A stretch of DNA of 64,000 bases from Candidatus Eiseniibacteriota bacterium. Its GTDB lineage: Bacteria > Eisenbacteria > RBG-16-71-46. A model generated the notes under the pieces. The model had not been told where the DNA came from and did no database searches. It worked only from the letters and a program-made list of their open reading frames with translations. Shown one piece after another: positions 1,996-46,936 of the stretch (position 1 is its first letter; each line of letters opens with the position of its first letter). The stretch is taken from contig JANLWX010000028.1 of the NCBI GenBank assembly GCA_031364845.1, positions 5,346 through 69,345 of the forward strand, written 5' to 3'. The position numbers and the translations under genes are program-made.

Positions 1996-2072
1996 TCGAG
2001 TCGCGGCGGTGCGGGCCCGTGGGGTCCGCACCCGCCGCATCGACACATCCCACCAAGACCCATACGAGCGCG

Positions 2073-4808: not shown

Positions 4809-4810
4809 CG

Positions 4811-8101: not shown

Positions 8102-9129
8102 GCACTCTTCGCAGAGTTCACGCGCGGATCGTCGTTGCACTGTGCGTGAGCGCCGCGCTCGCGACCGCCGTGCCCGCTGCGGCGCAGAGCAAGACCGGGA
8201 CGACCATCGGGGCGTTCCTGCTGATCGAGCCGAGTGCCCGCAGCGCCGGCATGGGCAACACCGGTGTGACGCTCGAAGGACTCGATGCCGCGTACTTCAA
8301 TCCCGCGGCGATCGGACATGCCGAGGGGCGCGCGCTTGCGTTCGGGCACAGCGAATGGTTCGCGGGGATCAAGCACGAGCACGTCGCGGGCGCGCTGCCG
8401 ATCGGCCGGTTCGGCAACGTCTACGCCGCGGTCACGTCGCTCAACTCAGGGGACATCGACGTGCGGACCGTCACGCAGCCGCAGGGAACCGGCGAGCGTT
8501 ACCATGTCTCCGACATCGCGATCGGCCTCGGCTACGGACGCCAGATCACCGACCGTTTCTCGGCCGGGCTCCAGGTGACCTACGTTCAGGAGACGATCTG
8601 GAACACCACGCTCTCGACCGGAACCATGAGCTTCGGCACGCTCTACCAGATCTCGGACAACGGCCTGCGGCTCGGGGCGAGCCTGTTGAACTTCGGTACC
8701 ATGGGCAAATTCTCGGGGCGCGACCTGCGGGTGACCTACGATGGCGACCCGGACCGATTCGGTGACAATGGCCAGCTTCCCGCCGAAATCTTCACCGACG
8801 CCTTCTCCGTGCCGGTGCTGTTCCGGGTCGGAGTCGGGCTTCCGGTGCGGCTCAATCCCGTGACACAGTTGAACCTCGCGCTCGATGCGCTCCATCCCAA
8901 CGACAACACCGAGAGCGTGAGCGCGGGCGCCGAGCTGGCGTATCGCAAGCGGTTCGCGCTGCGGGCGGGATACCAGAAGGCGGGAGAACAGGACTCGGAA
9001 GTCGGATTCACCGCGGGCGGCGGCGTGGGCGGGGCGTACGATGTGTACGTCTACACGCTCGACTACGCATGGGCCGCGCACGGCAGGCTCGGCAGCACCC
9101 ACCGGATCGCGGTGGGATTGACGTTCTGA
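8098..9129 (+). CDS. PorV/PorQ-family outer-membrane beta-barrel protein (T9SS-associated), translationally coupled to the upstream type-B CTD protein
   Basis: ATG 8098 overlaps the upstream stop (ATGA). Signal peptide MSTLRRVHARIVVALCVSAALATAVPAAAQ. Post-signal motif 'GAFLLIEPSARSAGMGNTGVTLEGLDAAYFNPAAIG' fits the ARxxGMGGA...NPA signature of PorV/PorQ-like proteins. The family assignment is from memory of the motif. Confidence 0.65.
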   Translation: MSTLRRVHARIVVALCVSAALATAVPAAAQSKTGTTIGAFLLIEPSARSAGMGNTGVTLEGLDAAYFNPAAIGHAEGRALAFGHSEWFAGIKHEHVAGALPIGRFGNVYAAVTSLNSGDIDVRTVTQPQGTGERYHVSDIAIGLGYGRQITDRFSAGLQVTYVQETIWNTTLSTGTMSFGTLYQISDNGLRLGASLLNFGTMGKFSGRDLRVTYDGDPDRFGDNGQLPAEIFTDAFSVPVLFRVGVGLPVRLNPVTQLNLALDALHPNDNTESVSAGAELAYRKRFALRAGYQKAGEQDSEVGFTAGGGVGGAYDVYVYTLDYAWAAHGRLGSTHRIAVGLTF

Positions 9130-9204: not shown

Positions 9205-10788
9205 ATGAAACGGCACATACTGTTCCTGAGCGCGCTGCTGATGCTCGGGGCATCGAGCGCGAACGCGATCACCACCGAAGCGCTGTTGGACTCGGTCCAG
9301 CACGCCTCGTTCCGGTACTGCTGGTATCAAGCCAATCCCGCCAATGGTCTGGTCCGCGACCGCAGCCAGTCGGGCTCCCCGGCGAGCACCGCGGCGGTCG
9401 GCTTCGCCCTTTCTGCGATCACGGTTGGAATCGATCACGAGTGGATCACGCGTGAGCAGGGACGCGACCGGGTGAGGACCACGCTCGAGACGCTGTGGAG
9501 CAAGCCGCAAGGCACCGGCGTGAGCGGATTCATCGGGTACAAGGGTCTGTTCTATCACTGGCTCGACATGAACACCGCGCTGAGGATGTGGAACTCGGAA
9601 GTATCCACGATCGACACCGGGCTCCTGTTCGCGGGCATCCTGCAGGCGCGTGAATACTTCACGGGCACCGACACGACGGAGACCCGGATCCGCGCGCTCG
9701 CCGATTCGATCACCTATCGAGCGGACTGGAAGTTCATGCAGAACTCGGGTTCTCCGCTCAAGCATGGGTGGACTCCGGAATCGGGATTCATCGTCTACAA
9801 CTGGACGGGCTACAACGAAGCCATGGTCATGTACGTCATTGCCATGGGATCGCCGACTCATCCGCCCACCAACGGCAGTCCCTGGACGAGTTGGACCAGC
9901 ACCTACTCGTGGCAGACCCACTACGGCCAGTCGTACGTGAACTTCCCGCCGCTGTTCGGCCACCAGTATTCGCACTGCTGGATCGACTTCCGCTACATCA
10001 ACGACGCGTACATGACGAATCGCGGCATCACGTACTTCGAGAACTCGCGCCGCGCCACGCTCGCCCAGCGTTCGTACGCGATCGCGAACCCGAACTTCAA
10101 GATCGGCTACAGCGACAGCCTGTGGGGGCTGACCGCGAGCGACGGCCCCGGCAACTCCTACAACGCGCGCGGCGCGCCGCCCGCGCAGAACGACGATGGA
10201 ACCATCACGCCGACGGCACCGCTGAGTTCGATACCCTTCGCGCCCGAAGCCACGATCCCGGTGATGCACAAGCTGTGGAACACCTATAAGACGCAGTTGT
10301 GGGGGCCTTACGGTTTCCGCGACGCGATGAGTCTCCAGGCGAACCCCGACTGGTTCGACCCCGACTATCTCGGCATCGATCAGGGGCCGATCGTGCTCAT
10401 GATCGAGAACTACCGCAACGGCTCGGTGTGGAATCGCTTCATGCTCAACCCGCAGGTGAAGGCGGGTCTTGCGGCGGCGGGATTCACGCGCACGGTGACC
10501 GGCGTCGAGCAGCCGCTGTTCGACGGCGCGGTCGAGTTGCTCGCGAACGAACCCAATCCGTTCCACGACGCGACCACGCTGCGATTCCGTCTCGGCCGTG
10601 AGAGTCACGTGCGCCTGACGGTGTTCGATGTGGGCGGGCGCGAGGTCGCGCGGGTCGCCGATCGCGTGTTCCCGGCGGGACTCCATCGGGTTCCGCTCGA
10701 AGGCGCGCGCCTGGGCAGCGGCATCTATTACACACGTCTCGAAGGTCAGGGCCGGACCGATGTCCGGAGAATCGTGTTGCTCCACTAG
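9205..10788 (+). CDS. GH144-like (DUF3131/glycoamylase-like) endo-beta-1,2-glucanase candidate with a T9SS type-A CTD
   Basis: Signal MKRHILFLSALLMLGASSANA. 'FRYCWYQANPANGLVRD', 'GFIGYKGLFYHWLDMNT', 'FGHQYSHCWIDFRYINDAYMT', 'FENSRRATLAQRSYAI' and 'YLGIDQGPIVLMIENYRNG' are typical of the GH144/DUF3131 family. C-terminus 'EPNPFHDATTLRF.L......L.VFDVGGREV...........G......G.YYTRL' is CTD-like. Confidence 0.8.
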   Translation: MKRHILFLSALLMLGASSANAITTEALLDSVQHASFRYCWYQANPANGLVRDRSQSGSPASTAAVGFALSAITVGIDHEWITREQGRDRVRTTLETLWSKPQGTGVSGFIGYKGLFYHWLDMNTALRMWNSEVSTIDTGLLFAGILQAREYFTGTDTTETRIRALADSITYRADWKFMQNSGSPLKHGWTPESGFIVYNWTGYNEAMVMYVIAMGSPTHPPTNGSPWTSWTSTYSWQTHYGQSYVNFPPLFGHQYSHCWIDFRYINDAYMTNRGITYFENSRRATLAQRSYAIANPNFKIGYSDSLWGLTASDGPGNSYNARGAPPAQNDDGTITPTAPLSSIPFAPEATIPVMHKLWNTYKTQLWGPYGFRDAMSLQANPDWFDPDYLGIDQGPIVLMIENYRNGSVWNRFMLNPQVKAGLAAAGFTRTVTGVEQPLFDGAVELLANEPNPFHDATTLRFRLGRESHVRLTVFDVGGREVARVADRVFPAGLHRVPLEGARLGSGIYYTRLEGQGRTDVRRIVLLH

Positions 10789-10841
10789 TGTCCGCGGGCC
10801 GCGGCGCGCGAGAACGTTCGAAGAGAGGACAAGGCCGACGC

Positions 10842-13800
10842 ATGCCAAAGATCGAGGCGGCGACCACGCTGCCTCGCGAGGACAACACGACCTCGCGGGG
10901 CAGTCTCGTCGTTTCGCCCGGTGCGATCCTCTCCAACGGGCGGCTCTCGGTTGCGATCACCGGACGCGGCACCGGTTTCACTTCTCACGGCGGGTCCCTG
11001 CTCACGCGCTGGGCCGGCGATCCGGTCGAGGACCGCGACGGCAGCTTCGTCTATCTGCGTGACCTCGACTCGCGTGAGGTGTGGACTGCGGGTACCGAGC
11101 CGCTAGCCGGTGTTCCCGACGCCTACGAATCCACGTGGCGCCCCGGCGTGTTCACGATCGAGCGGCGCGACCACGGCATCGAGACGAAGCTCGAAGTCGC
11201 CGTGATGCCGGACGCCGATGCCGAGGTGCGGCGCGTCACGTTGCGCAATCGCTCGCGTCGCGCGCGGCGCATCGAGATCACGAGCTTCGCGCCGGTCGTG
11301 ATTCACGACGCCGCGGCTGACGCCTCGCATCCGGCGTTCTCACGGTTGTTCGTCCAGACCGAATTCGACTCCTCAACGCGCGCGCTGGTCGTGTCCCGGC
11401 GGCCGCGGCATCCGGACGAGCAGCATCCGTGGCTGGTACACGTGATGACCGGCGCGGGCCGGCTCGAGCACGAAACCGACCGCGACCGCTTCATCGGCCG
11501 CGGCGGCACCACGGCAGCACCGCGCGCGCTTTCGTCGCGCGGGCGGCTTTCGGGAACCACCGGCAACGTGCTCGACCCGATCGTGAGCCTGCGGCGGGTC
11601 GTGAAGCTCGAGCCCGGCGGGATCGCGCACGTGTTCTTTGGGCTGGGTGCGGCGTTCGATCGCGAAGCCGCGCTGGAACTGGCGCGCGTGGTGCAGCGCG
11701 ACGCGGATGCGGCGTTCGACCTCGCGGAGCACGCGGAGGTTGCCCGGCTGGCACTCGCGGGCGTGACGCCCGCACTCGAAGAACGCCGGCAGGCGCTCGC
11801 GGTCGCGACGTTGTACGGGCGGTTCGTGGAATCCGTTGCCGGTAGGGTGGCGGCGGGCACGAAGCCCGTGTCCATCACCGATCAACTCCATGCGGCCGGG
11901 ACCGCGACCCCGTCGCCGAGCGTGAATCGCGTCCGCATCGCCGCGCACGCCACCGCGCACCACAACGGCGTCGCGCGGCTCCCCGCGCAGCGCTCCTCAC
12001 GCGCGACCTCGCGGCGGCGCACCGCGACGCCCGAGCCGCTCCAGTTCTGGAACGGCTACGGCGGGTTTTCGGCCGAAGGCACCGAGTATGTCATCCGACT
12101 CGCCCACCATAAGGAGCTTGGTCTCTCGCTGCCGCCGGCACCGTGGGTCAACGTGCTCGCGAACGAGAGCTTCGGTGCGCTCGTGAGCGAGACCGGCGCG
12201 GGATGCACGTGGAGCCGCAACAGCCGGGAGCATCGCCTGACGACGTGGTCCAACGACCCGCTGCTCGATCCGCACGGCGAGGCGCTCTACCTGCGCGACG
12301 AAGCGAGCGGCGAGTCGTGGTCGCCGCTGCCCGGTCCGCGACCCGCGGCCGCCGATTACGAAATGCGCCACGGTTTCGGCGTGAGCCGCTGCACCCATTC
12401 GAGCCACGGGCTCGAACAGGTGACCGAGATCTTCGTGCCTGCGCGCGAGCCGGTGAAGATCGTGCGCCTGCGGATCACGAATGCATCGGCGGCCCCGAGG
12501 CGCCTCGCGGTGTTCTCGTATCAACGGCTGGTGCTGGGATCGGACACCCGCGATCACGCGCGCACGGTGGAAGTCGAGCAGGACCGTGACTCAGGAATTC
12601 TGCTCGCGCGCAATCCCGCGTCGGGACCCTACGCCGGGGGCATCGCGTTCTCCACGGTCGTCGCATCCGGCGGCGTTTCTGCTTCGCACGTCACGCGCAA
12701 TCGCGAGGCGTTCCTCGGAGTGAACGGCAATCCGTCCGACCCCAGAGCGCTCCACGGTGGCACGCTTCGCGATGTTCCGGCCGGCGGCGATCCGTGTTTC
12801 GCGCGGCAGATCGTGATCGAGATCGCGCCGTCGGCGGTGTTCGAATGCGCGTTCCTGCTCGGCGAGACGATGGATCTGTCGAGCGTGCGCGAACTCGTCG
12901 AGCGCCTGGGCACCGGGGGTGCGATCGAAGCCGCGCTGCTCGCAACCCGCGAAGTGTGGGCCGAGCGCGTCTCGGCGGTCGCGATCCGCACGCCGCGCCC
13001 GGCGATCGATCTGATGGTGAACGGCTGGCTCGCCTACCAGACGCTCGCGTGCCGGCTGTGGGGGCGCACCGCGTTCTACCAGTCGGGCGGAGCGCTCGGG
13101 TTCCGCGACCAGCTCCAGGACGCGGCGTCGCTGCTCATGTGGTCGCCCGGTATTTTGCGCGAGCAGATCCTGACGCACGCCAGCCACCAGTTCGTGGAAG
13201 GCGACGTGCTCCACTGGTGGCACCCGCCCGATGCGCGCGGGATTCGCACGCGCTTCGCCGACGATTTGCTGTGGCTGCCGTGGCTCACCGCCGGATATGT
13301 CACGGCCACCGGCGATGCGGCGGTATTGGACGAGCAGACGCGCTATGTCACTGCCCGCGCACTCGAGGACGGCGAGGACGAAGCATTTCTCGTCCCCGAG
13401 GATTCCGGTGAGAGCGGTGATGTCTACGAGCACTGCTGCCGGGCGATCGACCGATCGCTCGCGACCGGTATCCACGGCCTGCCGCTGTTCGGCACCGGTG
13501 ACTGGAACGACGGCATGAATCGCGTGGGCCGCGAAGGCCGCGGCGAAAGCGTGTGGATGGGCTTCTTCCTCTACACCGTGCTTGGCGAGTTCCTCGCGCT
13601 GTGCGAACGGCGCGCCGACCGCGCGCGGATCGAGCGCTATGTCGCGCATCGTGAACATCTGAAGACCGCGCTCAACGATGCCGGATGGGACGGCGGCTGG
13701 TACCGGCGCGGCTACTACGACGACGGCACCGCGCTCGGCACGAAGGACGGCGACGAGTGCCGCATCGACGCGCTGGCTCAGGCGTGGGCGGTGTTGTCGG

Positions 13801-14483
13801 GCGCGGCACCGAAGGCGCGCGCCCGGCGCGCGATCGACGCGGTGGAGCAACGCCTCGTGAGCGAGCGCCAGCAGTTGATCAAGCTGCTCGATCCGCCGTT
13901 CGAGCACACGCCGCACGATCCCGGCTACATCAAGGGTTACGTGCCCGGCGTGCGCGAGAACGGCGGGCAGTACACGCATGCCGCGCTGTGGGTGGTGCGG
14001 GCGGTCGCCGAACTCGGACGTAACGATCGCGCGGCAGCCCTGCTCGAGATGCTGAGTCCGGTCCGTCACACGCGCACGCGCGCGCAGGCGGATCAGTATC
14101 GTGTGGAGCCGTACGTGATCGCCGCCGACGTGTACGGCGCGGCACCTCACGTCGGACGGGGAGGCTGGACGTGGTACACGGGATCGGCGGGATGGATGCT
14201 GCGGGTCACGCTGGAGTCGGTGCTCGGCGTGAGGCTCGAACAGGGAAGGACGCTCACGATCGCGCCGTGCGTTCCCGATCAGTGGCCGGGCTTCGACGTG
14301 CGCTGGACGGTGCCGGGCGAGTCGACGGTCTACGAGATCGTGGTGCGGAATCCGAAGCGCCGCGCGCGGCGGGTGGTGACGGCCAAGGTGGACGGACAGC
14401 GCGCGGCAGTCGTCCGCGGCGTGGCACGGATTGCGATCGAACACGATCAACGCGCCCATCGCATCGACGTGGTGCTGGGTTGA
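10842..14483 (+). CDS. GH94 glycoside phosphorylase (1,2-beta-oligoglucan phosphorylase / cellobiose-phosphorylase superfamily)
   Basis: ORF 10788-14483, ATG at 10842 (MPKIEAATT). Catalytic-domain motifs 'GWLAYQTLACRLWGRTAFYQSGGALGFRDQLQDAASL', 'GDVLHWWHPPDARGIRTRFADDLLWLPW' and 'GTGDWNDGMNRVGREGRGESVWMGFF' are GH94-like. Confidence 0.8.
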   Translation: MPKIEAATTLPREDNTTSRGSLVVSPGAILSNGRLSVAITGRGTGFTSHGGSLLTRWAGDPVEDRDGSFVYLRDLDSREVWTAGTEPLAGVPDAYESTWRPGVFTIERRDHGIETKLEVAVMPDADAEVRRVTLRNRSRRARRIEITSFAPVVIHDAAADASHPAFSRLFVQTEFDSSTRALVVSRRPRHPDEQHPWLVHVMTGAGRLEHETDRDRFIGRGGTTAAPRALSSRGRLSGTTGNVLDPIVSLRRVVKLEPGGIAHVFFGLGAAFDREAALELARVVQRDADAAFDLAEHAEVARLALAGVTPALEERRQALAVATLYGRFVESVAGRVAAGTKPVSITDQLHAAGTATPSPSVNRVRIAAHATAHHNGVARLPAQRSSRATSRRRTATPEPLQFWNGYGGFSAEGTEYVIRLAHHKELGLSLPPAPWVNVLANESFGALVSETGAGCTWSRNSREHRLTTWSNDPLLDPHGEALYLRDEASGESWSPLPGPRPAAADYEMRHGFGVSRCTHSSHGLEQVTEIFVPAREPVKIVRLRITNASAAPRRLAVFSYQRLVLGSDTRDHARTVEVEQDRDSGILLARNPASGPYAGGIAFSTVVASGGVSASHVTRNREAFLGVNGNPSDPRALHGGTLRDVPAGGDPCFARQIVIEIAPSAVFECAFLLGETMDLSSVRELVERLGTGGAIEAALLATREVWAERVSAVAIRTPRPAIDLMVNGWLAYQTLACRLWGRTAFYQSGGALGFRDQLQDAASLLMWSPGILREQILTHASHQFVEGDVLHWWHPPDARGIRTRFADDLLWLPWLTAGYVTATGDAAVLDEQTRYVTARALEDGEDEAFLVPEDSGESGDVYEHCCRAIDRSLATGIHGLPLFGTGDWNDGMNRVGREGRGESVWMGFFLYTVLGEFLALCERRADRARIERYVAHREHLKTALNDAGWDGGWYRRGYYDDGTALGTKDGDECRIDALAQAWAVLSGAAPKARARRAIDAVEQRLVSERQQLIKLLDPPFEHTPHDPGYIKGYVPGVRENGGQYTHAALWVVRAVAELGRNDRAAALLEMLSPVRHTRTRAQADQYRVEPYVIAADVYGAAPHVGRGGWTWYTGSAGWMLRVTLESVLGVRLEQGRTLTIAPCVPDQWPGFDVRWTVPGESTVYEIVVRNPKRRARRVVTAKVDGQRAAVVRGVARIAIEHDQRAHRIDVVLG

Positions 14484-15934
14484 GATCGATCGTCACGCGG
14501 CCGGCGTGGGTACTGCTCGCGCTGTTCGCGATCGCGACGGCGTCGTGCTCGTCGACCGCAACGCGAGCCGTCGCAACCGCGACCGCACCGCGCCACTCGG
14601 CGCGCGAAACCGCGTTCCTCGACACGCTCGAACACCGCACGTTCCGGTTCTTCTGGGAGCAGAGCGACTCGGTGACCGGCATGGCGCCCGATCGCTGGCC
14701 GACGCGCTCGTTCGTGAGCGTGGGTGCGGTCGGCTTCGCGCTCACCGCGTACCCGATCGGTGCCGAGCGCGGCTGGGTGCCGCGTGCGGCGGCGGTCGAA
14801 CGCACGGCGCGCACGTTGCGCTGGTTCTGGGCCGCGCGCCAGGACACCGCCGCCCAGGGTGCGACCGGCTATCGCGGGTTCTACTACCACTTCCTGCACC
14901 CGACCACCGGCACACGCTTCGAGACGGTCGAACTGTCGACCATGGACACGGCACTGCTGCTCGCGGGGGCGCTGTTCTGCCAGTCGTATTTCGATCGCCC
15001 CGGGCCCGCCGAAGCCGAAGTGCGCGCGCTCGCCGATTCGATCTACCGCCGCGTCGACTGGCGCTGGGCGCAGGTGCGTCCGCCCACGATCGCGCTCGGA
15101 TGGAATCCCGAAGGCGGACACCTGCCGTACGACTGGCGCGGCTACAACGAGACGATGCTGCTGCACATCCTCGCACTCGGATCGCCGACGCACCCGGTCG
15201 GGCCCGACACGTGGCGCTCATACACCAGCGCCTATCGTTTCGGCACCTACCAGGGACAGGAGCATCTCGGTTTCGCGCCGCTGTTCGGACATCAGTACTC
15301 GCACGTGTGGATCGACTTCCGCGGCATCCGCGACAGCGTGATGCGGGCGCACGATCTCGACTACTTCGAGAACTCGCGGCGCGCCACACTCGCGCAGCGC
15401 GCGTACGCGATCGAAAATCCTTCGGGCTGGGCCGGTTATGGCGCGAATCTGTGGGGGCTCACCGCGTGCGATGGTCCGGTCGAGAAGGCGATGACGATCG
15501 ACGGGCGCGCGCGGCAGTTCCACACCTACTGGGCGCGCGGCGCGTCGTTCACCGAGGTGAACGACGACGGAACGCTGTCGCCGACCGCGGCGGGCGGATC
15601 GATTCCGTTCGCGCCCGAGATCGCGATCCCCGCGCTGATGACGATGCGCGAGCGCTTCGGCGCCCACGTGTTCGGCGAGTACGGATTCGTCGACGCGTTC
15701 AACCCCACGCTGCGCGAGGCGATCCCCGTGCAGCACGGCCGCGTCGTGCCGGATGTGGGCTGGTTCGACACCGATTACCTCGGCATCGATCAGGGACCGA
15801 TCCTCGCGATGGCCGAGAATCATCGCACGCAGCTGGTGTGGCGCACACTGCGGAAGAATCCGCACATCGTGCGCGGCCTGCGCGCGGCGGGCTTCACCGG
15901 CGGCTGGCTCGACGGAGCGCCGGTCGCGCGATGA
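14480..15934 (+). CDS. GH144-like (DUF3131) lipoprotein, second paralog
   Basis: Frame of ORF 14171-15934. The only sensible start is TTG 14480 (overlaps the GH94 stop as TTGA), giving MRSIVTRPAWVLLALFAIATASC (lipobox TASC). Shares the 'FGHQYSHVWIDFRGIRD', 'FENSRRATLAQRAYAI' and 'YLGIDQGPILAMAENHR' blocks with 9205-10788. Confidence 0.75.
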   Translation: MRSIVTRPAWVLLALFAIATASCSSTATRAVATATAPRHSARETAFLDTLEHRTFRFFWEQSDSVTGMAPDRWPTRSFVSVGAVGFALTAYPIGAERGWVPRAAAVERTARTLRWFWAARQDTAAQGATGYRGFYYHFLHPTTGTRFETVELSTMDTALLLAGALFCQSYFDRPGPAEAEVRALADSIYRRVDWRWAQVRPPTIALGWNPEGGHLPYDWRGYNETMLLHILALGSPTHPVGPDTWRSYTSAYRFGTYQGQEHLGFAPLFGHQYSHVWIDFRGIRDSVMRAHDLDYFENSRRATLAQRAYAIENPSGWAGYGANLWGLTACDGPVEKAMTIDGRARQFHTYWARGASFTEVNDDGTLSPTAAGGSIPFAPEIAIPALMTMRERFGAHVFGEYGFVDAFNPTLREAIPVQHGRVVPDVGWFDTDYLGIDQGPILAMAENHRTQLVWRTLRKNPHIVRGLRAAGFTGGWLDGAPVAR

Positions 15935-17223
15935 ACTCGCGCCTCAGGGATCTGTGCCTCGCCGCACTGCTCGCCCTCTCCGCCGCCGGCTGCAGCACGG
16001 CGCGCAGCGGCGAGCCGGTCACGCTCCGGTTCTGGGCGATGGGCCGCGAGGGTGAGGTCGTCGAGGAGCTGGTGCGCGACTTCGAGCGCGAGCAGCCCGG
16101 CATTCGCGTCGAGGTGCAGCAAATTCCGTGGGGTGCCGCGCATGAAAAGCTGCTCACATCCCATGTCGGCAACTCCACACCCGACGCGGGGCAGCTCGGC
16201 AACACGTGGATCTCCGAGTTCGTCGCGCTGCGGGCGATCGAGCCGCTCGCCGAATGGGTGCGCGGTTCGGCGGCGGTTCCCGAGAGCGCCTACTTCGCGG
16301 GCATCTGGGACACCAACGTCATCGACGGCACCGCGTACGGGATTCCGTGGTACGTGGACACGCGTCTGCTGTTCTATCGCAAGGACCTGCTCGCGCGCGC
16401 CGGCTACGCCTCGATGCCCGAGACGTGGGACGAGTGGCGCCGCGCGATGGAGGCCGTGAAGAAGCTCGGCGTCGGCCCTTACGCGATCTTCCTGCCGACC
16501 AACGAATACACGCCGTGGATCATCTTCGGCCTCCAGACCGGATCGGCGCTGCTCGCCGAGGACGGCACCCGCGGCGCGTTCTCGTCACCCGAGTACCGCC
16601 GCGCGATGGCGTTCACCATGGACCTGTTCGATCGCGGGCTCGCACCCAAGGTGCCCGGCGCTTCGATCGCCAATCTCTATCAGGAGTTCGAGCGCGGCAC
16701 GTTCGCCATGTACATCTCGGGGCCGTGGCAGCTCGGCGAATTCGCACGCCGCCTGCCGCCGGAAATGCAGTCGGCGTGGGACGTCGCACCGTTGCCCGGC
16801 CCCGATGGGCCCGGCGCCTCGGTCGCCGGCGGATCGAGCCTCGTGATGTTCCGCGGCTCCAGGCACAAGGCCGAAGCGTGGAAGCTGATCGAGTTCCTCT
16901 CGCGCCCCGAGCAGCAGGTGCGTTTCTTCCGGCTCACCGGCGACCTGCCGGCGCGTGTCGAAGCGTGGCGCGACACGGCACTCACCAACGACCGCCGCCT
17001 CGGCGCGTTCGAACGGCAACTGCGCCACGCAGTGTCGACGCCCAAGGTGCCGGAGTGGGAGCAGATCTCGGTCAAGCTCCAGGACCGCGTGGAATCGGTG
17101 GTGCTCGGCGGCACGCTTCCAGACTCGGCACTCGCCGCGCTCGACCGCGACGTCGACCGCATGCTCGAGAAGCGCCGCTGGCTCATGTCGCGGCGCCACG
17201 CCGCCGCCGCGGGGACGCGATGA
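15931..17223 (+). CDS. ABC transporter extracellular sugar-binding lipoprotein (family 1 SBP)
   Basis: ATG 15931 overlaps the upstream stop (ATGA). MNSRLRDLCLAALLALSAAGC lipobox. 'LRFWAMGREGEVVEELVRDFEREQPGIRVEVQQIPWGAAHEKLL' and 'GIPWYVDTRLLFYRKDLL' are typical of oligosaccharide SBPs. Confidence 0.85.
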   Translation: MNSRLRDLCLAALLALSAAGCSTARSGEPVTLRFWAMGREGEVVEELVRDFEREQPGIRVEVQQIPWGAAHEKLLTSHVGNSTPDAGQLGNTWISEFVALRAIEPLAEWVRGSAAVPESAYFAGIWDTNVIDGTAYGIPWYVDTRLLFYRKDLLARAGYASMPETWDEWRRAMEAVKKLGVGPYAIFLPTNEYTPWIIFGLQTGSALLAEDGTRGAFSSPEYRRAMAFTMDLFDRGLAPKVPGASIANLYQEFERGTFAMYISGPWQLGEFARRLPPEMQSAWDVAPLPGPDGPGASVAGGSSLVMFRGSRHKAEAWKLIEFLSRPEQQVRFFRLTGDLPARVEAWRDTALTNDRRLGAFERQLRHAVSTPKVPEWEQISVKLQDRVESVVLGGTLPDSALAALDRDVDRMLEKRRWLMSRRHAAAAGTR

Positions 17224-18119
17224 GTTCCGCCCAGCTCCCCAGCCGCACCCAGTCGCGCGCCGCGTGGTGGTTCCTTGCCCCCGCACTCGGGCTGATCACG
17301 GTGTTCTTCGCGGTGCCGGTCGTGATCGGCCTGTTCCTGAGCCTCACCGACTTCGATCTCTATGCGATCGGCGATCTGTCGAGCGTGCGCTTCCTCGGGC
17401 TCGGCAACTACGGGCAGGTGCTCGCGAATCCGCTGTTCTGGAAGGCGCTCGGCAACACGTTCTTCTACGTGATCGTCGGCGGACCGCTGTCGGTGGTCGC
17501 CTCGCTCGTGGCGGCGCTGCTCGTGAGCTCGCGCCTCGCGCGCTTCCAGGGCTTCTTCCGCTCGGTGTTCTTCGTGCCGGTCGTCACCACGCTGGTCGCG
17601 GTGTCGATCGTGTGGCGCTACCTCTACCATCCGCAGTACGGCCTGATCGACGGACTGCTGCGCGCGATCGGCATCGCGCCGATCGACTGGCTCGGCGATC
17701 CGCACTACGCGATGCCCGCGATCATCGTGCTCGCGGTGTGGAAGAACTTCGGCTACAACATGCTGATCTTCGTCGCCGGCCTGCAGAGCATCCCGGACGA
17801 TCTCTACGAAGCCGCTCGCCTCGACGGCGCCGGCGCGTGGCAGCAGTTCCGCCACATCACGGTGCCGGGACTCGGGCCCACGTTCCTGTTCGTCGGCGTG
17901 ATGACGATGCTCGGCCACTTCCAGTTGTTCTCCGAACCCTACGTGATGACGCAGGGTGGCCCGCTCAAGAGCACGCTGAGCGTGGTGCTGCTCATGTACG
18001 AGGAAGGGTTCCGCTGGTGGCGCATGGGTCTCGCCGCCGCGATCGCGTTCGTGCTGTTCGTGATCATGCTGATCGGAACCATGATCCAGATGCGCCTGCA
18101 GCGTTCGAGGGCCGCATGA
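17220..18119 (+). CDS. ABC sugar transporter permease (MalF/UgpA-like)
   Basis: ATGA overlap at 17220. Six TM segments and an EAA loop 'IPDDLYEAARLDGAGAWQQFRHITVP'. Confidence 0.9.
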   Translation: MSSAQLPSRTQSRAAWWFLAPALGLITVFFAVPVVIGLFLSLTDFDLYAIGDLSSVRFLGLGNYGQVLANPLFWKALGNTFFYVIVGGPLSVVASLVAALLVSSRLARFQGFFRSVFFVPVVTTLVAVSIVWRYLYHPQYGLIDGLLRAIGIAPIDWLGDPHYAMPAIIVLAVWKNFGYNMLIFVAGLQSIPDDLYEAARLDGAGAWQQFRHITVPGLGPTFLFVGVMTMLGHFQLFSEPYVMTQGGPLKSTLSVVLLMYEEGFRWWRMGLAAAIAFVLFVIMLIGTMIQMRLQRSRAA

Positions 18120-18937
18120 AGCGCGCGATGCCGTCCCTGTTCGTCCACGTCGCGCTGGTGATCGGCGCGCTGCTCACGATGACGCCGCTGCTGTGGATGG
18201 TGTCGGCGTCGTTCATGCCGCCGGGCGAGGCGAACACGTTTCCGCCGCGGCTGTTCCCGAGCGTCGCGACCCCCGAGCACTACGTCGCGCTGTTCACGCG
18301 GCTCAACTTGGCGCGCACGCTGATGAACAGCATGATCGTCGCGATCGGCGCGACCGCGATCTCGGTGCTCGTCAACGGGCTCGCGGGCTATGCGTTCGCC
18401 AAGCTGCATTTCGGCGCCCGCGACCGGCTGTTCCGGATCCTGCTCGCGGCACTCGTGATCCCCGGGCAGGTCGGCATGCTGCCTCTGTTCCTGATGCTCC
18501 AGAAGATGGGGCTCGTGAACACGCTGTGGGGCGTGATGATTCCCGGCCTCGCGAGCATCTTCGGAATCTTCATGGTGCGCCAGTACGCGACCAGCATCCC
18601 CGACGAGCTGCTCGACGCGGCGCGCGTCGACGGCGCGAGCGAGTTCCGGATCTACTGGACGATCGTGATGCCGCTGCTGCGCCCGATCCTCGTGACCCTG
18701 GCCGCGTTCACGTTCCTCTCGATGTGGAACGACTTCATGTGGCCGCTGATCATCCTGAGCGACGAGCGCAAGTACACGCTGCCGGTGGCGCTCGCGAATC
18801 TCGTGGGCGAACACGTGCAGGACACCGAGCTCATGATGGCGGGCTCGATGCTGACGGTGCTGCCGGTGCTGATCGTGTTCCTGGTGCTCCAGCGCTGGTA
18901 TCTGCGCGGCGTGATGATGGGGGCGGTCAAGGGATGA
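18116..18937 (+). CDS. ABC sugar transporter permease (MalG/UgpE-like)
   Basis: ATGA overlap at 18116. 'IPDELLDAARVDGASEFRIYWTIVMPLLRP' EAA motif. Confidence 0.9.
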   Translation: MKRAMPSLFVHVALVIGALLTMTPLLWMVSASFMPPGEANTFPPRLFPSVATPEHYVALFTRLNLARTLMNSMIVAIGATAISVLVNGLAGYAFAKLHFGARDRLFRILLAALVIPGQVGMLPLFLMLQKMGLVNTLWGVMIPGLASIFGIFMVRQYATSIPDELLDAARVDGASEFRIYWTIVMPLLRPILVTLAAFTFLSMWNDFMWPLIILSDERKYTLPVALANLVGEHVQDTELMMAGSMLTVLPVLIVFLVLQRWYLRGVMMGAVKG

Positions 18938-21900
18938 ACGCTTGGACTGCGGCCGGCACCGCCGGCCTGTGCAATCGACGCAGGCCGGGGCCGGGCGTCA
19001 GCGCGTCGTTCTTGGCGTTCGTGCTCGTGTCCGTGATCGGAGTTGCAGCCCACGCAGCGCCTCCGGCGCCGCGTGTACATCTGGATGCGTTCGATGACGT
19101 CTCCGCGTGGAGTGCGGTGCCCGCGAGCGGCGTTCAACTGCGGATCGGCTCCGACGCCGGAACCCACGGCCGCGCGATGCGGCTCGATTTCGATTTCGGC
19201 GGGGGCGGCGGCTACGCGGTCGCGCGCCGCGCGATCGCGATCGATCTACCCGCGAACTACCGCTTCCGTTTCGCGGTGCGCGGCGACTGCAAGCCCAACG
19301 ACCTCGAGTTCAAGCTGATCGACGCGAGCGGCGACAACGTGTGGTGGAACAACCGCCGCAACTTCGTGTTCCCGGCCCAGTGGGAAACGCTCACCACGCG
19401 CAAACGCCAGATCGGCTTCGCGTGGGGGCCGAGCAACGCCGAGCTGCGCCACGTCGCGGCGATCGAGATCGCGATCACCGCCGGCAGCGGAGGCAAGGGT
19501 ACGGTGTGGCTCGACGAGTTCACGCTGGAGCCGCTTCCCGTGGCGAGTGCCACTCCGCCGGCGGTTGCGGCCCGCGCATCGTCATCGCGTCCGCGCTCGC
19601 CGGCCGCCGCGGCGGTGGATCGCGACTCCGCGAGCGTGTGGGCGAGCGATGCCGGCGACAGCCGCCCGTGGCTTGCGCTCGATCTGGGAGGAGAGCGCGA
19701 ATTCGGCGGGCTTGTGATCGACTGGGCCGACGGGCGCCATGCGACGGACTACGACGTGGAGGTTTCGGGCGACGGCACCGCATGGCGGCCGCTTCGCGCG
19801 GTGCGCGGCGCCAACGGCGGGCGCGATCACCTGTACCTGCCCGAGTCCGAAGCGCGCGCCCTCCGCGTGCGCGCGACGCGCGCCGTCGCCGCGCGTGGCA
19901 TCGCGATCCGGTCGATCACGGTCGAGCCCCTCGAGTGGTCGGCATCGCTCGGACACTTCTACGAGACGCTGGCCGCGGAAGCGCCGCACGGCAGCTATCC
20001 GCGCGGGCTGTTGCAGGAGCAATCCTATTGGGCGGTGCTCGGCACGGATCGCGGTGAAGTCGAGGAGGCGATGCTGGGCGAAGACGGCATGCTCGAGACG
20101 GGCAAAGCGCAGTACTCGATCGAGCCGTTCCTGCGCGTCAACGATTCGCTCGTGACGTGGGCCGACGTCCAAGCCAGCCACCGCCTCGCGGAAGGCGATC
20201 TGCCGATTCCGACCGTGACGTGGCGTCGCGGCGAGACGGAGTTGTCGGTGACGGCGTTCGCGTTCGACCCGCTGGACGAAACTCCGGCGGCGCTCGCGGG
20301 CCTTGCGCGCAACGGTCTCGGCGTGCTCGCGCGCTACCGCGTGACCCATCAGGGCCAGCGTCCCGCGCGTATCACGCTCTATCTCGCGCTGCGCCCGTTC
20401 CAGGTGAATCCGCTGTCCCAGTTCCTCAACACCGCGGGCGGTGTCGCCACGATCCGAACGCTCGCGCGCGAAGGTGCGGTGGTGCGCGTGAATGGCGATC
20501 GCGGGATCGTCTCCCTCACGCCGCCCGCGCGCTTCGGGGCGGCGGCGTTCGATCACGGCGACATCGTCGAGTTCCTGCGCCGGGGCGGCGTGCCCGCGCG
20601 CGACAGCGTGTCCGATCCCTTTGAGCACGCGTCGGGCGCGCTCGAATACGTGTTCGACATTCCCGCCGGCGGCACGCGCGAAGTGGACGTGTTCATTCCG
20701 TTGCGCGGACGGCCTTCGGCGCCCGCGGTCGTGCCCACGCCCGCGATGGTCGCGCAGGCCGAGGCGGCGAGCGTGAAGCGCTGGGCCGCTCATCGCCGCG
20801 GAATCACGATCGAGGTTCCGCAGGCGGGGGCCGAGGAGATCCGCGCGATGCGCGCGCAACTCGGATGGATCCTGATCAACCGCGACGGTGCGGCGATCCA
20901 GCCGGGATCGCGCTCGTACGAGCGCTCGTGGATCCGCGACGGCTCGCTCACCTCGACCGCACTGCTGCGGCTCGGCCATCCCGAGGTCGTGCGCGAGTTC
21001 ATCACCTGGTTCGCGGGGCATCTCTATCCCGACGGCAAGGTGCCGTGCTGCGTCGATGCGCGCGGCGCCGATCCCGTGCCCGAGCACGACAGCCACGGCG
21101 AGTTCATCTACCTCGTCGCCGAGTACTACCGCTACACCGGCGATCGCGCGCTGATCGAGCAGCAGTGGCCGGCGATCGCGCGCGCGGTCGCGCACATGGA
21201 TTCGCTGCGCCAGACGCGGCGCACCGCGGAATGGCGGGTACCCGCGAAGCGCGAGTTCTTCGGCCTGCTGCCGCCTTCGATCAGCCACGAAGGCTACTCG
21301 GCGAAACCGATGCACTCCTACTGGGACGATTTCTTCGCCCTGCGCGGATTCAAGGACGCGGCGTGGCTGGCGGGAGTGCTCGGACGCCGGTCGCAGCAGA
21401 TCGCGTTCACCGCGATGCGCGATCAGTTCCAGCGCGAACTCGGTGCCTCGATCAAGGCGGCAATGGCGCGCCATCGCATCGACTACATCCCGGGCTGTGC
21501 CGACCTTGGCGACTTCGACGCGACCTCGACCACGATCGCGCTCGCGCCGGCATCCGCCGAAGCGGCGCTGCCGCCGGGGGCACTGGCGCGCACGTTCGAG
21601 AAGTACTGGGAATTCTTCCGCGAGCGGCGCGTGAGCACGACATGGGACGCGTACACACCTTACGAAACGCGCGTCATCGGCAGCATGGTGCGGCTAGGCT
21701 GGCGCGAGCGCGCCGATTCGCTGGCGACCTGGTTCCTGCGTGACCGGCGTCCGCTCGGTTGGCAGCAGTGGGCCGAAGTGGTCGATCGCGAACCGCGCCA
21801 CGTGCGCTTCATCGGCGACATGCCGCATACGTGGGTCGGCTCCGACTTCGTGCGTTCGGTGCTCGACCGCTTTGCCTATGAGCGTGAAGGCGACAGCACG

Positions 21901-22191
21901 CTCGTGATCGGCGCCGGCATTCCGCTCGCATGGACGAAGGACTCCGGCGTGAACGTGAAGGGCCTTCCGACGCCGCACGGGCCGCTGGGTTTCACGATGC
22001 GCGCGCACGGGGACTCGATGGTGGTGACGATCGATGCCGGCGTGCGGGTTCCGCGCGGTGGAATTCTGCTGCGCCCGCCTGCGGCGGGTGCGCCCATGAG
22101 TGCGAGCGTGAACGGCGCCGCGGTGCGTCCGAGCCCTGCAGGGCTCTTGATCCGCAAGCTCCCCGCGCGCGTGGTCATTCGCAGCCGCTGA
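18934..22191 (+). CDS. Large secreted enzyme: two F5/8-type-C (discoidin)-like carbohydrate-binding domains plus a C-terminal (alpha/alpha)6 six-hairpin glycosidase-like domain
   Basis: ATGA overlap at 18934. Signal 'SASFLAFVLVSVIGVAAHA'. Discoidin-like blocks '...GTVWLDEFTLEPL' and 'WLALDLGGEREFGGLVIDWADGRHATDYDVEVSGDGTAWRPL'. The C-terminal half ('SRSYERSWIRDGSLTSTALLRLGHPEVVREFITWFAGHLYPDGKVPCCVD', 'GEFIYLVAEYYRYTGD') resembles GH15/GH63/debranching-type toroid folds. No family could be assigned by eye. Confidence 0.7.
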   Translation: MNAWTAAGTAGLCNRRRPGPGVSASFLAFVLVSVIGVAAHAAPPAPRVHLDAFDDVSAWSAVPASGVQLRIGSDAGTHGRAMRLDFDFGGGGGYAVARRAIAIDLPANYRFRFAVRGDCKPNDLEFKLIDASGDNVWWNNRRNFVFPAQWETLTTRKRQIGFAWGPSNAELRHVAAIEIAITAGSGGKGTVWLDEFTLEPLPVASATPPAVAARASSSRPRSPAAAAVDRDSASVWASDAGDSRPWLALDLGGEREFGGLVIDWADGRHATDYDVEVSGDGTAWRPLRAVRGANGGRDHLYLPESEARALRVRATRAVAARGIAIRSITVEPLEWSASLGHFYETLAAEAPHGSYPRGLLQEQSYWAVLGTDRGEVEEAMLGEDGMLETGKAQYSIEPFLRVNDSLVTWADVQASHRLAEGDLPIPTVTWRRGETELSVTAFAFDPLDETPAALAGLARNGLGVLARYRVTHQGQRPARITLYLALRPFQVNPLSQFLNTAGGVATIRTLAREGAVVRVNGDRGIVSLTPPARFGAAAFDHGDIVEFLRRGGVPARDSVSDPFEHASGALEYVFDIPAGGTREVDVFIPLRGRPSAPAVVPTPAMVAQAEAASVKRWAAHRRGITIEVPQAGAEEIRAMRAQLGWILINRDGAAIQPGSRSYERSWIRDGSLTSTALLRLGHPEVVREFITWFAGHLYPDGKVPCCVDARGADPVPEHDSHGEFIYLVAEYYRYTGDRALIEQQWPAIARAVAHMDSLRQTRRTAEWRVPAKREFFGLLPPSISHEGYSAKPMHSYWDDFFALRGFKDAAWLAGVLGRRSQQIAFTAMRDQFQRELGASIKAAMARHRIDYIPGCADLGDFDATSTTIALAPASAEAALPPGALARTFEKYWEFFRERRVSTTWDAYTPYETRVIGSMVRLGWRERADSLATWFLRDRRPLGWQQWAEVVDREPRHVRFIGDMPHTWVGSDFVRSVLDRFAYEREGDSTLVIGAGIPLAWTKDSGVNVKGLPTPHGPLGFTMRAHGDSMVVTIDAGVRVPRGGILLRPPAAGAPMSASVNGAAVRPSPAGLLIRKLPARVVIRSR

Positions 22192-22195
22192 GTTT

Positions 22196-23590
22196 CTAAC
22201 TGCCGAAAACGGCCCCGGAACCATCCGCCAGCACCGCGCCGTTCGTTCGGATCACCTCGCGGTAATATTCGGCACTCGCCTTCATCGTCCGCGCCTGCGT
22301 CGCCGGATCCACGTGCAGGAGTCCGAAGGTGATGGCGTAGCCGCTCGCCCATTCGAAATTGTCGAGCAGCGACCACGCGAAATAGCCACGCACATCGACG
22401 CCGCGGCGGATCGCCTCGAGTGTCGCGAGCAGGTGTTCGCGGTAATACGACACGCGCTGCGCGTCATCGATGCGGCCGTCTGCCGTCGGCGAGGGATCGT
22501 CGAACGCGCCACCGTTCTCGGTGATGTAGAGCGGGATGTCGCCGTAGCGCTCCTTCACCCAGCACAGCGCGCGCGTGAGGCTCTCGGCGTGCACTTCCCA
22601 GCCGGTCTGCATGTGGCCGGGACCTTCCGTTCTCACCTTGGCCGCGCGCATCGGCCACGTGGCGTCGTCGTGCTTCATGATGCTGCGCGTGTAGTAGTTG
22701 ATCCCGAGGAAGTCGATCGGCTGTCGGATCAAGGCGAAGTCTTCGGCCGGGAACTCGACCCACGCATCGCCGTAGATTTCACGCATGCCGTCGGGCGCGC
22801 GGCCGAGCATCGGGGGATCGAGATACTGCTGGTTCATGTACACATCGGCGCGGGTCGTCGCGGCGAGGTCTTCGGCGCTCTCCGAGGCTGCATCCTTCGG
22901 CTCGAGGTTCACGACCAGGCCGATCTTCTGTTTGCCGATGCCGCGGTAGCGCTGGACCGCGGCACCATGTGCGCGCATCAGGTGGTGCGCGGCGATCGGC
23001 GCTTCGTAGAGGTTGCGATGGCCGGGCGCGTTCACGCCGTAGAGATATCCGCCGTCGACCACCACCCACGGCTCGTTGAGTGTCGCCCACATCGGCACGC
23101 GGTCGCCGAGCGCGCGGAAGCAGACCTCGGCGTAGTCGGCGAACCAGTGCGCGATGTCGGGGTTGAGCCACCCGCCGCGATCGTCGAGTGCCACCGGCAG
23201 GTCCCAATGGAACAGCGTCACGCACGGTTCGATGCCGCGCGTGAGCAACTGGTCGACGAGTCGCGAATAGAAGTCGATGCCCTTGGCGTTCACGCGCCCA
23301 AGTCCTTCGGGAAGGATGCGCGCCCACGCGAGGCTGAAGCGGTAGGAATCGAGTCCGAGCCGCGCCATCCATTCGACGTCCTCGGCGAAGCGGCGGTAGT
23401 GATCGCACGCGAGGTCACCGGTGTCGCCGCCTTTGACGCGCCCGGGTGTGTGCGAGAAGCGGTGCCAGATGTTCATTCCCGCACCGTCGGCGAGCGGTGA
23501 GCCTTCGATCTGGTAGGCGGAGGTCGCAGCGCCCCACAGGAACTTCTCGGGGAATGATGTCGCGCCTCCGGCGGTCGGATTCATCGTCAT
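22196..23590 (-). CDS. GH1 beta-glucosidase
   Basis: ORF 22196-23896 on the minus strand; the R-rich N-terminal extension was rejected. Start at MTMNPTAGGATSFPEKFLWGAATSAYQIEG (GH1 N-terminal signature). 'TLNEPW' acid/base and 'YITENG' nucleophile motifs are present. Confidence 0.9.
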   Translation of the reverse strand: MTMNPTAGGATSFPEKFLWGAATSAYQIEGSPLADGAGMNIWHRFSHTPGRVKGGDTGDLACDHYRRFAEDVEWMARLGLDSYRFSLAWARILPEGLGRVNAKGIDFYSRLVDQLLTRGIEPCVTLFHWDLPVALDDRGGWLNPDIAHWFADYAEVCFRALGDRVPMWATLNEPWVVVDGGYLYGVNAPGHRNLYEAPIAAHHLMRAHGAAVQRYRGIGKQKIGLVVNLEPKDAASESAEDLAATTRADVYMNQQYLDPPMLGRAPDGMREIYGDAWVEFPAEDFALIRQPIDFLGINYYTRSIMKHDDATWPMRAAKVRTEGPGHMQTGWEVHAESLTRALCWVKERYGDIPLYITENGGAFDDPSPTADGRIDDAQRVSYYREHLLATLEAIRRGVDVRGYFAWSLLDNFEWASGYAITFGLLHVDPATQARTMKASAEYYREVIRTNGAVLADGSGAVFGS

Positions 23591-25364: not shown

Positions 25365-25516
25365 GAGCGCGCGAAGGTAGCATGCCGCGCACATGCCGCG
25401 CCCGGCCGCGAAGCGGGCGGGTGCAAGGGGAGGCGAGGTGCGTGGGGATTCCCAACGAGGGCCGCGAAGCGGCCGAGTGCACGCGACCGGGCGCGTGAAT
25501 ACTCAAACACCCAGGC

Positions 25517-46246: not shown

Positions 46247-46283
46247 ACTTCGCGCCATCGGCGCGAACTCTTGTGCGATCGAA
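46193..46283. repeat. Left copy of a ~90-bp imperfect direct repeat (3' end of gene 44945-46246 plus ~35 bp downstream)
   Basis: 'aagacgcgcatgcgttctccggagacgaagatcggagcgagcgggcagcgctgaacttcgcgccatcggcgcgaactcttgtgcgatcg' is ~80% identical to 51102-51192, including a 30-bp core 'cagcgctgaacttc[g/t]cgccatcggcgcgaa'. Confidence 0.65.
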
Positions 46284-46465
46284 GACCCGAGGGAGCGCGG
46301 ATATTTGATCAGTCCGCGCTCCGAGGTGTCCCTGACTGCGAGCCCGGGCTCTATATGTGCTCAGCCGCCAACATGCCTTCAATGGCTCCCACCTCCGCAA
46401 CACCATGCTCCCACCGAAGTGAAGATAGAACTTCACGCCCCTCGTGTTTTCTGATTGCAAATAAA

Positions 46466-46477
46466 GGGGGGGGGGGG
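46466..46477. repeat. Homopolymeric G12 tract (candidate slipped-strand phase-variation site)
   Basis: 'ataaaGGGGGGGGGGGGcgtaacg', ~50 bp upstream of GTG 46529 at the 5' edge of the island gene array. Confidence 0.85.
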
Positions 46478-46528
46478 CGTAACGTGGTGCGCGGCTAGTG
46501 TGAAACACACACTGCCCTACCATCTGGT

Positions 46529-46843: not shown

Positions 46844-46936
46844 GCTGCTTCTACCTGCGATCGCATCAAGGCAGTGGGCGCCGGTCGCGTGTTCTATGAC
46901 TTGCAATCAAATCGATCCATCCAAGCGAGGTGCATC

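Follow-up and report, generated by a model that had tools for sequence, protein, structure and literature searches.

A probable beta-1,2-glucan utilisation locus of Candidatus Eiseniibacteriota bacterium that encodes a large, putatively secreted protein of no recognised enzyme family

The 64-kb window analysed here, a stretch of contig JANLWX010000028.1 from Candidatus Eiseniibacteriota bacterium, contains a cluster of genes that very probably forms a system for the scavenging and utilisation of beta-1,2-glucans. Domains of the window proteins were assigned with Pfam and NCBIfam models at curated cutoffs, and the cluster was compared with related loci (numbered L001 onwards) from GTDB species genomes; all functional assignments and pathway steps are based on homology and gene neighbourhood. 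An earlier note on this DNA had described a beta-1,2-glucan utilisation locus of eight genes between positions 9205 and 23590. Translations and domain matches confirm the presence of all eight: two glucanase homologs of glycoside hydrolase family 144 (GH144; g1 and g3), a GH94 phosphorylase homolog (g2), a solute-binding protein (g4) and two permeases (g5 and g6) of an ATP-binding cassette (ABC) importer, a giant enzyme-like protein (g7), and a GH1 beta-glucosidase homolog (g8). The proposed function is supported by homology and synteny, and neither of the two outcomes that the note had named as speaking against it, a different family for the glucanase genes or a cellobiose- or chitobiose-specific phosphorylase, was found in the sequences. 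However, the locus does not start at 9205 but reaches about 9 kb further upstream, to about position 58, and includes genes of a secreted protein (gA), a TonB-dependent outer-membrane receptor, a second secreted protein referred to as 'big', and a PorV/PorQ-family outer-membrane beta-barrel. The system is thus roughly 23.5 kb long and has 12 genes (58–23590), which lie on the plus strand with the exception of g8.

The proteins g1 (9205–10788) and g3 (14480–15934, TTG start) are supported as putative endo-beta-1,2-glucanases of GH144. They match PF10091, the Pfam model matched by the characterised GH144 glucanases, with 261 and 273.5 bits, respectively, at a cutoff of 27, and are 45% identical to each other. 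The nearest solved structure for both is that of XcSGL (XCC2207, 8xul; E 1.7e-166 for g3 and 5.1e-110 for g1), followed by CpSGL (5gzh). XcSGL is specific for beta-1,2-glucan; CM-cellulose, barley glucan, and the other polysaccharides assayed are not degraded by it (PMC12102758). The residues characteristic of the GH144 clan are retained as E205, F251, and Y319 in g1 and as E224, F269, and Y350 in g3, the latter read off an alignment with 8xul, a structure of the E239Q mutant. The assignment of both open reading frames to GH144 thus stands, with proven beta-1,2-glucanases as the nearest structures and no shift to another family. The two proteins carry different export signals. Secreted g1 ends with a predicted sorting domain of the type IX secretion system (T9SS), whereas the N-terminus of g3 (...AIATASC) resembles a lipobox, as expected for a lipoprotein.

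The GH94 protein g2 (10842–14483; 1213 residues) contains the supersandwich and catalytic domains typical of the family (PF06165, 465 bits; PF17167, 397 bits). Its similarity to the phosphorylase domain of the cyclic glucan synthase Cgs (8rf9) amounts to 823.7 bits in two stretches: residues 46–295 of g2 align to Cgs 1542–1795 (GP1), and residues 417–1180 to Cgs 2024–2780 (GP2–GP3). In contrast, cellobiose and chitobiose phosphorylases score about 250–260 bits (cellobiose phosphorylases about 259), so that g2 is by sequence far closer to the Cgs domain than to either type. The motifs FRDQ (772–775) and GDWNDG (904–909), given in GTG numbering, contain D774 and D908, the equivalents of the two predicted active-site aspartates of Cgs, D2393 (FRDQ) and D2528 (DWND). 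Thus, g2 and Cgs share GP1, GP2–GP3, and both predicted active-site residues (PMC10901819, PMC11842490). However, g2 is free-standing and soluble and lacks the glycosyltransferase, the cyclase, and the membrane portions; where Cgs has a Rossmann-like insert between GP1 and GP2, g2 has about 120 residues without an alignable counterpart in Cgs; and the genomic context of g2 is catabolic, whereas that of Cgs is biosynthetic. The comparison supports g2 as a candidate free-standing Cgs-type beta-1,2-glucan phosphorylase. The analogy to Listeria SOGP drawn in the earlier note was wrong in detail: LpSOGP (5h3z) reaches just 24.7 bits (E 3.7e-05), below the cellobiose phosphorylases, and the SOGP-type enzymes of Listeria and Lachnoclostridium form a different subgroup, to which g2 does not belong.

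The solute-binding protein g4 (15931–17223; SBP_bac_1), which carries the lipobox LSAAGC, is closest among solved structures to 3uor from Xanthomonas citri (E 9e-130), whose PDB molecule name gives no ligand. The second match is Lin1841 (5ysb, E 4.8e-70), the beta-1,2-gluco-oligosaccharide-binding protein of Listeria, and the next one, with a different ligand, follows at E 2.4e-42. Lin1841 is thus the closest to g4 among ligand-defined proteins, and g4 is predicted to be a beta-1,2-gluco-oligosaccharide-binding protein of the Lin1841 type. The permeases g5 (17220–18119) and g6 (18116–18937) match PF00528 (BPD_transp_1), and homologs of g5 in related loci are 57–78% identical to it. The earlier note had pointed out that the locus contains no ATPase gene, and this extends to the whole window. 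No LSGGQ motif was found in the 64 kb, the sole Walker A match (40432) has no LSGGQ partner, and a tblastn search with the MalK gene of a related locus returned no match in the window. Since a MalK-type gene is located nearby in 23 related loci, it is plausible that g5 and g6 draw on a MalK/MsiK-type ATPase whose gene lies elsewhere. In 40 related loci, a gene for a LacI-family regulator is linked.

The last gene of the cluster, g8 (22196–23590, minus strand), is convergent with g7. The protein scores 563.9 bits with TIGR03356, above the equivalog cutoff of 478.5, and its best solved relative is 6jfp (E 2.2e-194). Both catalytic glutamates are present, the acid/base E173 in the motif NEP (172–174) and the nucleophile E358 in ITENG (356–360), which by the standard sequence criteria makes g8 a predicted GH1 beta-glucosidase. 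A GH1 enzyme that prefers sophorose is known from a beta-1,2-glucan cluster (PMC12369401). A signal peptide or a lipobox is present in gA, 'big', the PorV-like protein, g1, g3, g4, and g7, whereas none was seen in g2 and g8, which are predicted to be cytoplasmic.

The combination of genes recurs in related loci. In 61 of the 66 loci with enough flanking sequence, the gene directly upstream of that of the g7 homolog encodes a permease, and in 36 of 49 the block of GH144, solute-binding protein, and two permease genes is found no more than 5.2 kb upstream of it. Of the 29 loci with 9 kb on both sides, 26 contain GH94 or GH1 (20 contain GH1, counted alone). The GH94 proteins of related loci take two forms, the long Cgs-type form and one of about 810 residues. 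Three contexts that were reached through homologs of 'big' (L086–L088) again contain GH144, GH94, ABC transporter genes, and g7, and in L087 the genes follow the order of the window, from LacI and gA up to the first permease, beyond which the locus does not extend. The four co-directional upstream genes are syntenic with the glucan enzymes across phyla. A variant of the cluster is present in L001 (17266–19635) and L007 (18834–21197), in which a GH35 gene and a short GH94 gene of the 810-residue form replace the long Cgs-type gene; the stretch fetched for L001 contains no GH1. GH35 is the family of the beta-1,2-glucosyltransferase of Ignavibacterium album (PMC8861115). The literature searches yielded no paper that treats this locus in Gemmatimonadota or the genes next to XCC2207.

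The predicted functions can be arranged into a pathway. The substrate would be cyclic or linear beta-1,2-glucans, periplasmic or secreted, of other bacteria. At the cell surface, the T9SS-exported GH144 enzyme g1 would cut the polymer, and gA, 'big', and the PorV/PorQ barrel would probably hold substrate or cargo there. Fragments would be moved to the periplasm by the TonB-dependent receptor and shortened by the lipoprotein GH144 enzyme g3. A further glycosidic step in the periplasm may be performed by g7, most likely a hydrolase with a GH94-like scaffold of supersandwich and (alpha/alpha)6 barrel and two domains of carbohydrate-binding type. The Lin1841-type protein g4 and the permeases g5 and g6, with a MalK/MsiK-type ATPase from elsewhere, would import the oligosaccharides across the inner membrane. 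In the cytoplasm, the Cgs-type phosphorylase g2, a free-standing counterpart of the chain-trimming domain of Cgs, would free glucose 1-phosphate from the non-reducing end, and g8 would split the remaining sophorose.

The first of the upstream genes encodes gA (58–1995), a secreted protein of 645 residues with a faint CBM9-like region (CBM9_1, E 0.005) and a C-terminal T9SS type A sorting domain (TIGR04183, 29.9 bits at a cutoff of 23). Homologs with 45–60% identity are present in 14 related loci and, where genes were called (L003, L004, and L087), are located downstream of LacI; gA is probably a surface glycan-binding protein. The TonB-dependent receptor (2019–4808, start codon uncertain) matches PF00593, PF07715, and PF13715, and has an N-terminal CarboxypepD_reg domain. 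Only its N-terminal 120 residues match the SusC/RagA model TIGR04056. The receptor gene is syntenic in L010, L011, L021, L030, L032, L059, L064, L074, and L086–L088.

The secreted protein 'big' (4805–8101; 1098 residues) matches no Pfam model but has more than 3000 homologs, of which the best 120 are 64–84% identical to it; homologs are found in the same kind of locus in L001, L006–L008, L015, and L086–L088. The AlphaFold2 model of 'big' (predicted local distance difference test, pLDDT, 65) resolves tandem beta-sandwiches in the C-terminal half, whereas the N-terminal half, which is rich in invariant Asp, Gly, and Asn, was not modelled. A Foldseek search with the model returned only matches to tandem Ig/FN3-like domains at template modelling (TM) scores of about 0.1, and no paper on the protein was found. 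The PorV/PorQ barrel (8098–9129) is identified by NF033709 (176.6 bits at a cutoff of 90). A PorV-like gene lies directly upstream of the GH144 gene with the C-terminal sorting domain in L001, L006–L008, and L015, and a short fragment of one is located likewise at the edge of L005. None of gA, 'big', and the PorV-like protein has a Pfam match of the SusD family. The PorV/PorQ gene adjoins that of 'big', the C-terminus of which weakly resembles a sorting domain, and two proteins with predicted T9SS sorting domains, gA and g1, are encoded nearby. This setting suggests that the barrel may serve specifically the secreted proteins of this cluster, as their shuttle or anchor.

The giant protein g7 (18934–22191; 1085 residues) contains an F5/8 type C domain and a weak six-hairpin match. 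It was previously described as an enzyme with a discoidin domain and an (alpha/alpha)6 barrel; the domains are borne out by the AlphaFold2 model (pLDDT 91, predicted TM score 0.90), whereas membership of a recognisable enzyme family is not. From the N- to the C-terminus, the model predicts a CBM11-like sandwich with structural similarity to 1v0a, a discoidin domain of carbohydrate-binding module family 32 (CBM32), a beta-supersandwich, an (alpha/alpha)6 barrel, and a C-terminal sandwich. The best solved folds are those of GH94 phosphorylases, a GH15 dextran dextrinase, GH116, GH78, and GH65, at 10–13% identity and TM scores of about 0.45–0.55, and g7 therefore has no close solved relative. No catalytic-family model reaches its cutoff in the Pfam and NCBIfam scan of g7. 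Searches of solved structures with profiles of the whole family and of the barrel only returned just CBM32 domains and sub-threshold six-hairpin fragments (MmpH at E 0.005; GDE and GH78 above 0.02).

An indication of the ancestry of g7 comes from a profile–profile alignment by hhalign, in which residues 340–1085 match the GH94 profile with a probability of 96% (E 4.7e-9, 521 columns), compared with 2% for a GH144 profile, 0.1% for a GH1 profile, and 0.3% for a glucoamylase sequence, which were used as controls. In this remote alignment, which may be locally shifted, the GH94 motif FRD matches WIRD669, DWND falls on the invariant loop SISHE786GY (LPPSISHEG), and GGQYTH falls on TPYE911 (AYTPYE). 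The GGQYTH motif of GH94 presumably holds the phosphate-binding histidine. Several placements of g7 were considered and rejected. Membership of GH94 itself was discarded, as g7 matches neither PF06165 nor PF17167 and the acid motif DWND is not conserved in the alignment. With the GH15 model TIGR01577, g7 reaches 25.8 bits, far below the cutoff of 820.7, over residues 661–755 only; a resemblance to GH15 motifs (WxRD, WEE-like, and DxxW) was dropped with an hhalign probability of 0.3% against an A. niger glucoamylase sequence. The GH78 model Bac_rhamnosid6H remains, at 19.8 bits, below its gathering score of 24.5. Judged by these comparisons, g7 appears to belong to no described family and to be a remote relative of GH94.

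The family of g7 is large. More than 2335 homologs were found, all labelled as hypothetical or 'discoidin domain-containing', and the catalytic part alone gives 2514 cluster representatives. Relatives are encoded in at least 599 species genomes of Gemmatimonadota, Eisenbacteria, Krumholzibacteriota, Acidobacteriota, Binatia, and Chloroflexota (Limnocylindria), and in the cultured Steroidobacter flavus and Duganella sp. No paper on the family was found, and an exact look-up of g7 on its source contig gave no record. All ten homologs that were read begin with a signal peptide or a lipobox, and g7 is therefore read as secreted. The barrel is the most conserved part of the protein. The conserved motifs (WIRD669, E717-x-D719, SISHE786GY, YWD798D799, TPYE911, WAE948, and GD962xPH) cluster within it, and their acidic and aromatic residues are invariant. 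We infer that g7 is a secreted enzyme, more likely a hydrolase than a phosphorylase. It is unlikely that g7 is instead a non-enzymatic glycan-binding or scaffold protein of the periplasm or surface, which passes oligosaccharides to the binding protein and in which the barrel is a dead relic. The two domains of carbohydrate-binding type, the lack of a catalytic-family model at cutoff, and the lack of conservation of DWND would fit such a role, but the barrel with its invariant residues would not be expected to be the most conserved part, and conservation of 43–60% over 1000 residues across phyla is typical for an enzyme.

The step that g7 may catalyse can be narrowed to candidates. Digestion of alpha-1,6-cyclised beta-1,2-glucans by GH144 and beta-glucosidase leaves a 'non-degradable glucopentaose' (bioRxiv 10.1101/2025.04.21.649730). 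Because of this leftover, at least one catabolic step is still without an enzyme, which is a lead for g7 and not evidence. Candidate reactions are the opening of the alpha-1,6 closure of the cyclised glucans or the degradation of the pentasaccharide; another candidate is the stripping of branches or substituents off osmoregulated periplasmic glucans. It is tentatively proposed, as a possibility that could well prove wrong, that g7 founds a new family of glycoside hydrolases or transglycosylases, a secreted hydrolytic offshoot of the GH94-type scaffold that performs the beta-1,2-glucan step lacking a known enzyme, and that together with 'big', the PorV/PorQ barrel, and the receptor it defines a SusD-less, T9SS-linked type of locus in Gemmatimonadota, Eisenbacteria, Krumholzibacteriota, Acidobacteriota, and some Proteobacteria.

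Most of the co-directional genes are joined by overlaps. The junctions from g2 to g7 were read directly, and the five consecutive 4-bp overlaps listed in the earlier note were all recovered, TTGA at 14480 and ATGA at 15931, 17220, 18116, and 18934. The gene calls of the source record place the start of g3 at TTG 14480 by exact look-up. Two further ATGA overlaps are located upstream, between the receptor gene and 'big' (4805) and between 'big' and the PorV-like gene (8098). The four equivalent junctions of related loci offer an in-frame NTGA overlap in 33 of 44, 39 of 52, 34 of 43, and 48 of 62 cases (75–79%), which makes the overlaps a conserved feature of the operon. They are not unusual here, since the window contains at least five more (4805, 8098, 37449, 41069, and 56408). 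Among the overlaps between genes of bacterial operons, those of 4 bp form the commonest class. The overlaps fit translational coupling, as proposed in the earlier note, but are an ordinary operon feature. The overlaps of g2–g7 and of the receptor to PorV-like genes fit co-translation of equimolar partners.

The open reading frame of g2 also opens at GTG 10788. This start was rejected in favour of ATG 10842, which is the start in the source gene calls by exact look-up and is preceded by the sequence GAGAGGA. With this start, the junction of g1 and g2 is not an overlap but a 53-nt gap that contains GAGAGGA. The stop codons of g7 and g8 (22189–22198) are separated by just 4 nt, so that there is no space for an intergenic terminator between the two genes.

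The families present allow other substrates to be considered. GH94 and GH1 are the classic families of the cellobiose pathway, the Pfam name of PF10091 is still 'putative glucoamylase', and the CBM11-like domain of g7 (match 1v0a) resembles a module that binds beta-1,4/1,3-glucan. The locus could accordingly degrade cellodextrins, laminarin, or mixed-linkage glucan, in which case the GH94 enzyme would phosphorolyse cellobiose or laminaribiose, the GH1 enzyme would be a cellobiase, and the PF10091 proteins would be glucanases of a generic kind. This is very unlikely, as the assayed GH144 enzymes in the literature consulted act only on beta-1,2-glucans or on oligosaccharides of these, with XcSGL inactive on other polysaccharides (PMC12102758), g2 is far closer to the Cgs phosphorylase domain than to cellobiose phosphorylases, and g4 groups with Lin1841. 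It is likewise very unlikely that the function of the locus is to build or remodel periplasmic beta-1,2-glucans of the cell itself, with GH94 working synthetically from glucose 1-phosphate and GH144 and g7 serving as processing or cyclising transglycosylases like GH186 OpgD or the GH189 domain of Cgs. In favour of this, g2 derives from one domain of an enzyme of biosynthesis, GH144 shares its clan with the cyclisation domain GH189 (PMC10834661, PMC12102758), and g7 is periplasmic with no assigned activity. However, one GH144 copy appears to be exported by the T9SS, the locus is linked to a TonB-dependent receptor and, in the 40 related loci, to a LacI repressor, a scan of the 12 genes revealed no glycosyltransferase, the cluster also encodes a cytoplasmic beta-glucosidase, and the transporter, which depends on a binding protein, is of the importer type.

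Several points weigh against utilisation of beta-1,2-glucans as proposed here. Neither a LacI regulator nor an ATPase was found in the window, and regulation and energisation of the system are therefore unaccounted for locally. Since no role is assigned to g7, the pathway contains a step that is only a placeholder. The T9SS sorting domain of g1 is marginal (TIGR04183, 23.7 bits at a cutoff of 23). Scans for promoters and terminators at positions 1–27000 gave nothing above shuffled expectation, so that the single-operon claim draws only on gene spacing and strand. No characterised stand-alone Cgs-type GH94 enzyme was found in the literature searched, and the study of the I. album cluster states that its GH94 homolog is merely 'expected' to act as a phosphorylase (PMC8861115).

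The I. album SGL cluster (IALB_1177–1187 region; Kobayashi et al. 2022, PMC8861115) is among the closest known counterparts of the locus. It likewise contains two GH144 genes, a TonB-dependent transporter, and a Lin1841-type ABC importer, and its GH94 protein is, as g2 here, a 'homolog of the C-terminal SOGP domain of CGS'. The pathway proposed there consists of an extracellular cut, outer-membrane uptake, a periplasmic cut, ABC import, and phosphorolysis. With an equivalent cluster and pathway already proposed, this kind of locus has been described before. The two clusters differ in that I. album has the GH35 beta-1,2-glucosyltransferase IaSGT and, according to the discussion in the same source, no beta-glucosidase, whereas the window has GH1 and no GH35. 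The text of the paper on the I. album cluster makes no mention of a discoidin or (alpha/alpha)6 protein, of a gene like that of PorV, or of a protein of 1100 residues.

Similarities exist to three other systems as well. The Listeria innocua genes lin1839–1841 (SOGP, GH3, and Sopn-binding protein) follow the same order of steps, from ABC import to GH94 phosphorylase and beta-glucosidase, and the binding proteins are homologous (E 4.8e-70). However, the Listeria cluster has no endo-glucanase and no outer-membrane module, and its beta-glucosidase belongs to GH3 instead of GH1. In the Streptomyces griseus cluster SGR_2422–2427, a beta-1,2-glucanase is likewise encoded together with an ABC importer of the Lin1841 type and a GH1 beta-glucosidase (SGR_2426), but the glucanase belongs to GH193 instead of GH144, and the cluster has neither GH94 nor a g7-like protein (PMC12369401). 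The 477-residue GH1 entries 9j3w and 9j41, which are merely presumed to be SGR_2426, match g8 at about E 1e-122, compared with 2.2e-194 for 6jfp. The SusC/SusD polysaccharide utilisation loci of Bacteroidota similarly unite the genes of a TonB-dependent receptor, of glycan-active proteins that are secreted or surface-bound, of enzymes of the periplasm, and of a regulator in a co-directional cluster. In contrast to them, the locus in the window has no SusD match among its upstream genes, contains 'big' and the PorV/PorQ barrel, and relies on an ABC importer for uptake across the inner membrane.

Beta-1,2-glucans are factors of symbiosis, virulence, and osmoprotection in many Proteobacteria, and little is known about their recycling in soil and water. 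The comparison of loci points to a complete and conserved catabolic route for these glucans that is widespread in poorly cultured phyla. For the synthesis of beta-1,2-glucan, a free-standing Cgs-type GH94 phosphorylase would be useful. The main lead provided by the locus is g7, which represents a large family of uncharacterised putative enzymes that is linked almost obligatorily to GH144 and the importer. Together with the conserved outer-membrane module, which includes 'big' as a conserved outer-surface protein of 1100 residues, this family accounts for most of the interest in the locus. Biochemistry and genetics are feasible because cultured carriers exist (Steroidobacter flavus CGMCC 1.10759 and Duganella sp. 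1224; L075 and L077).

Some features of the surrounding sequence lie outside the cluster. No tRNA genes and no Rfam families at the gathering threshold were detected across the entire 64-kb window. Directly upstream of g8, at a distance of 85 nt, is a gene for a Ser/Thr protein kinase with C-terminal TPR repeats (23676–25394, minus strand); the pairing of kinase and GH1 recurs in L005 with a 4-bp overlap and is absent from most other related loci. The region 46000–51000 has a GC content of 0.59–0.61, compared with about 0.67 elsewhere in the window. It encodes a right-handed beta-helix protein of 876 residues (47809–50439), is followed by a GDP-mannose 4,6-dehydratase-like gene (51323–52312), and may be a surface-polysaccharide island.

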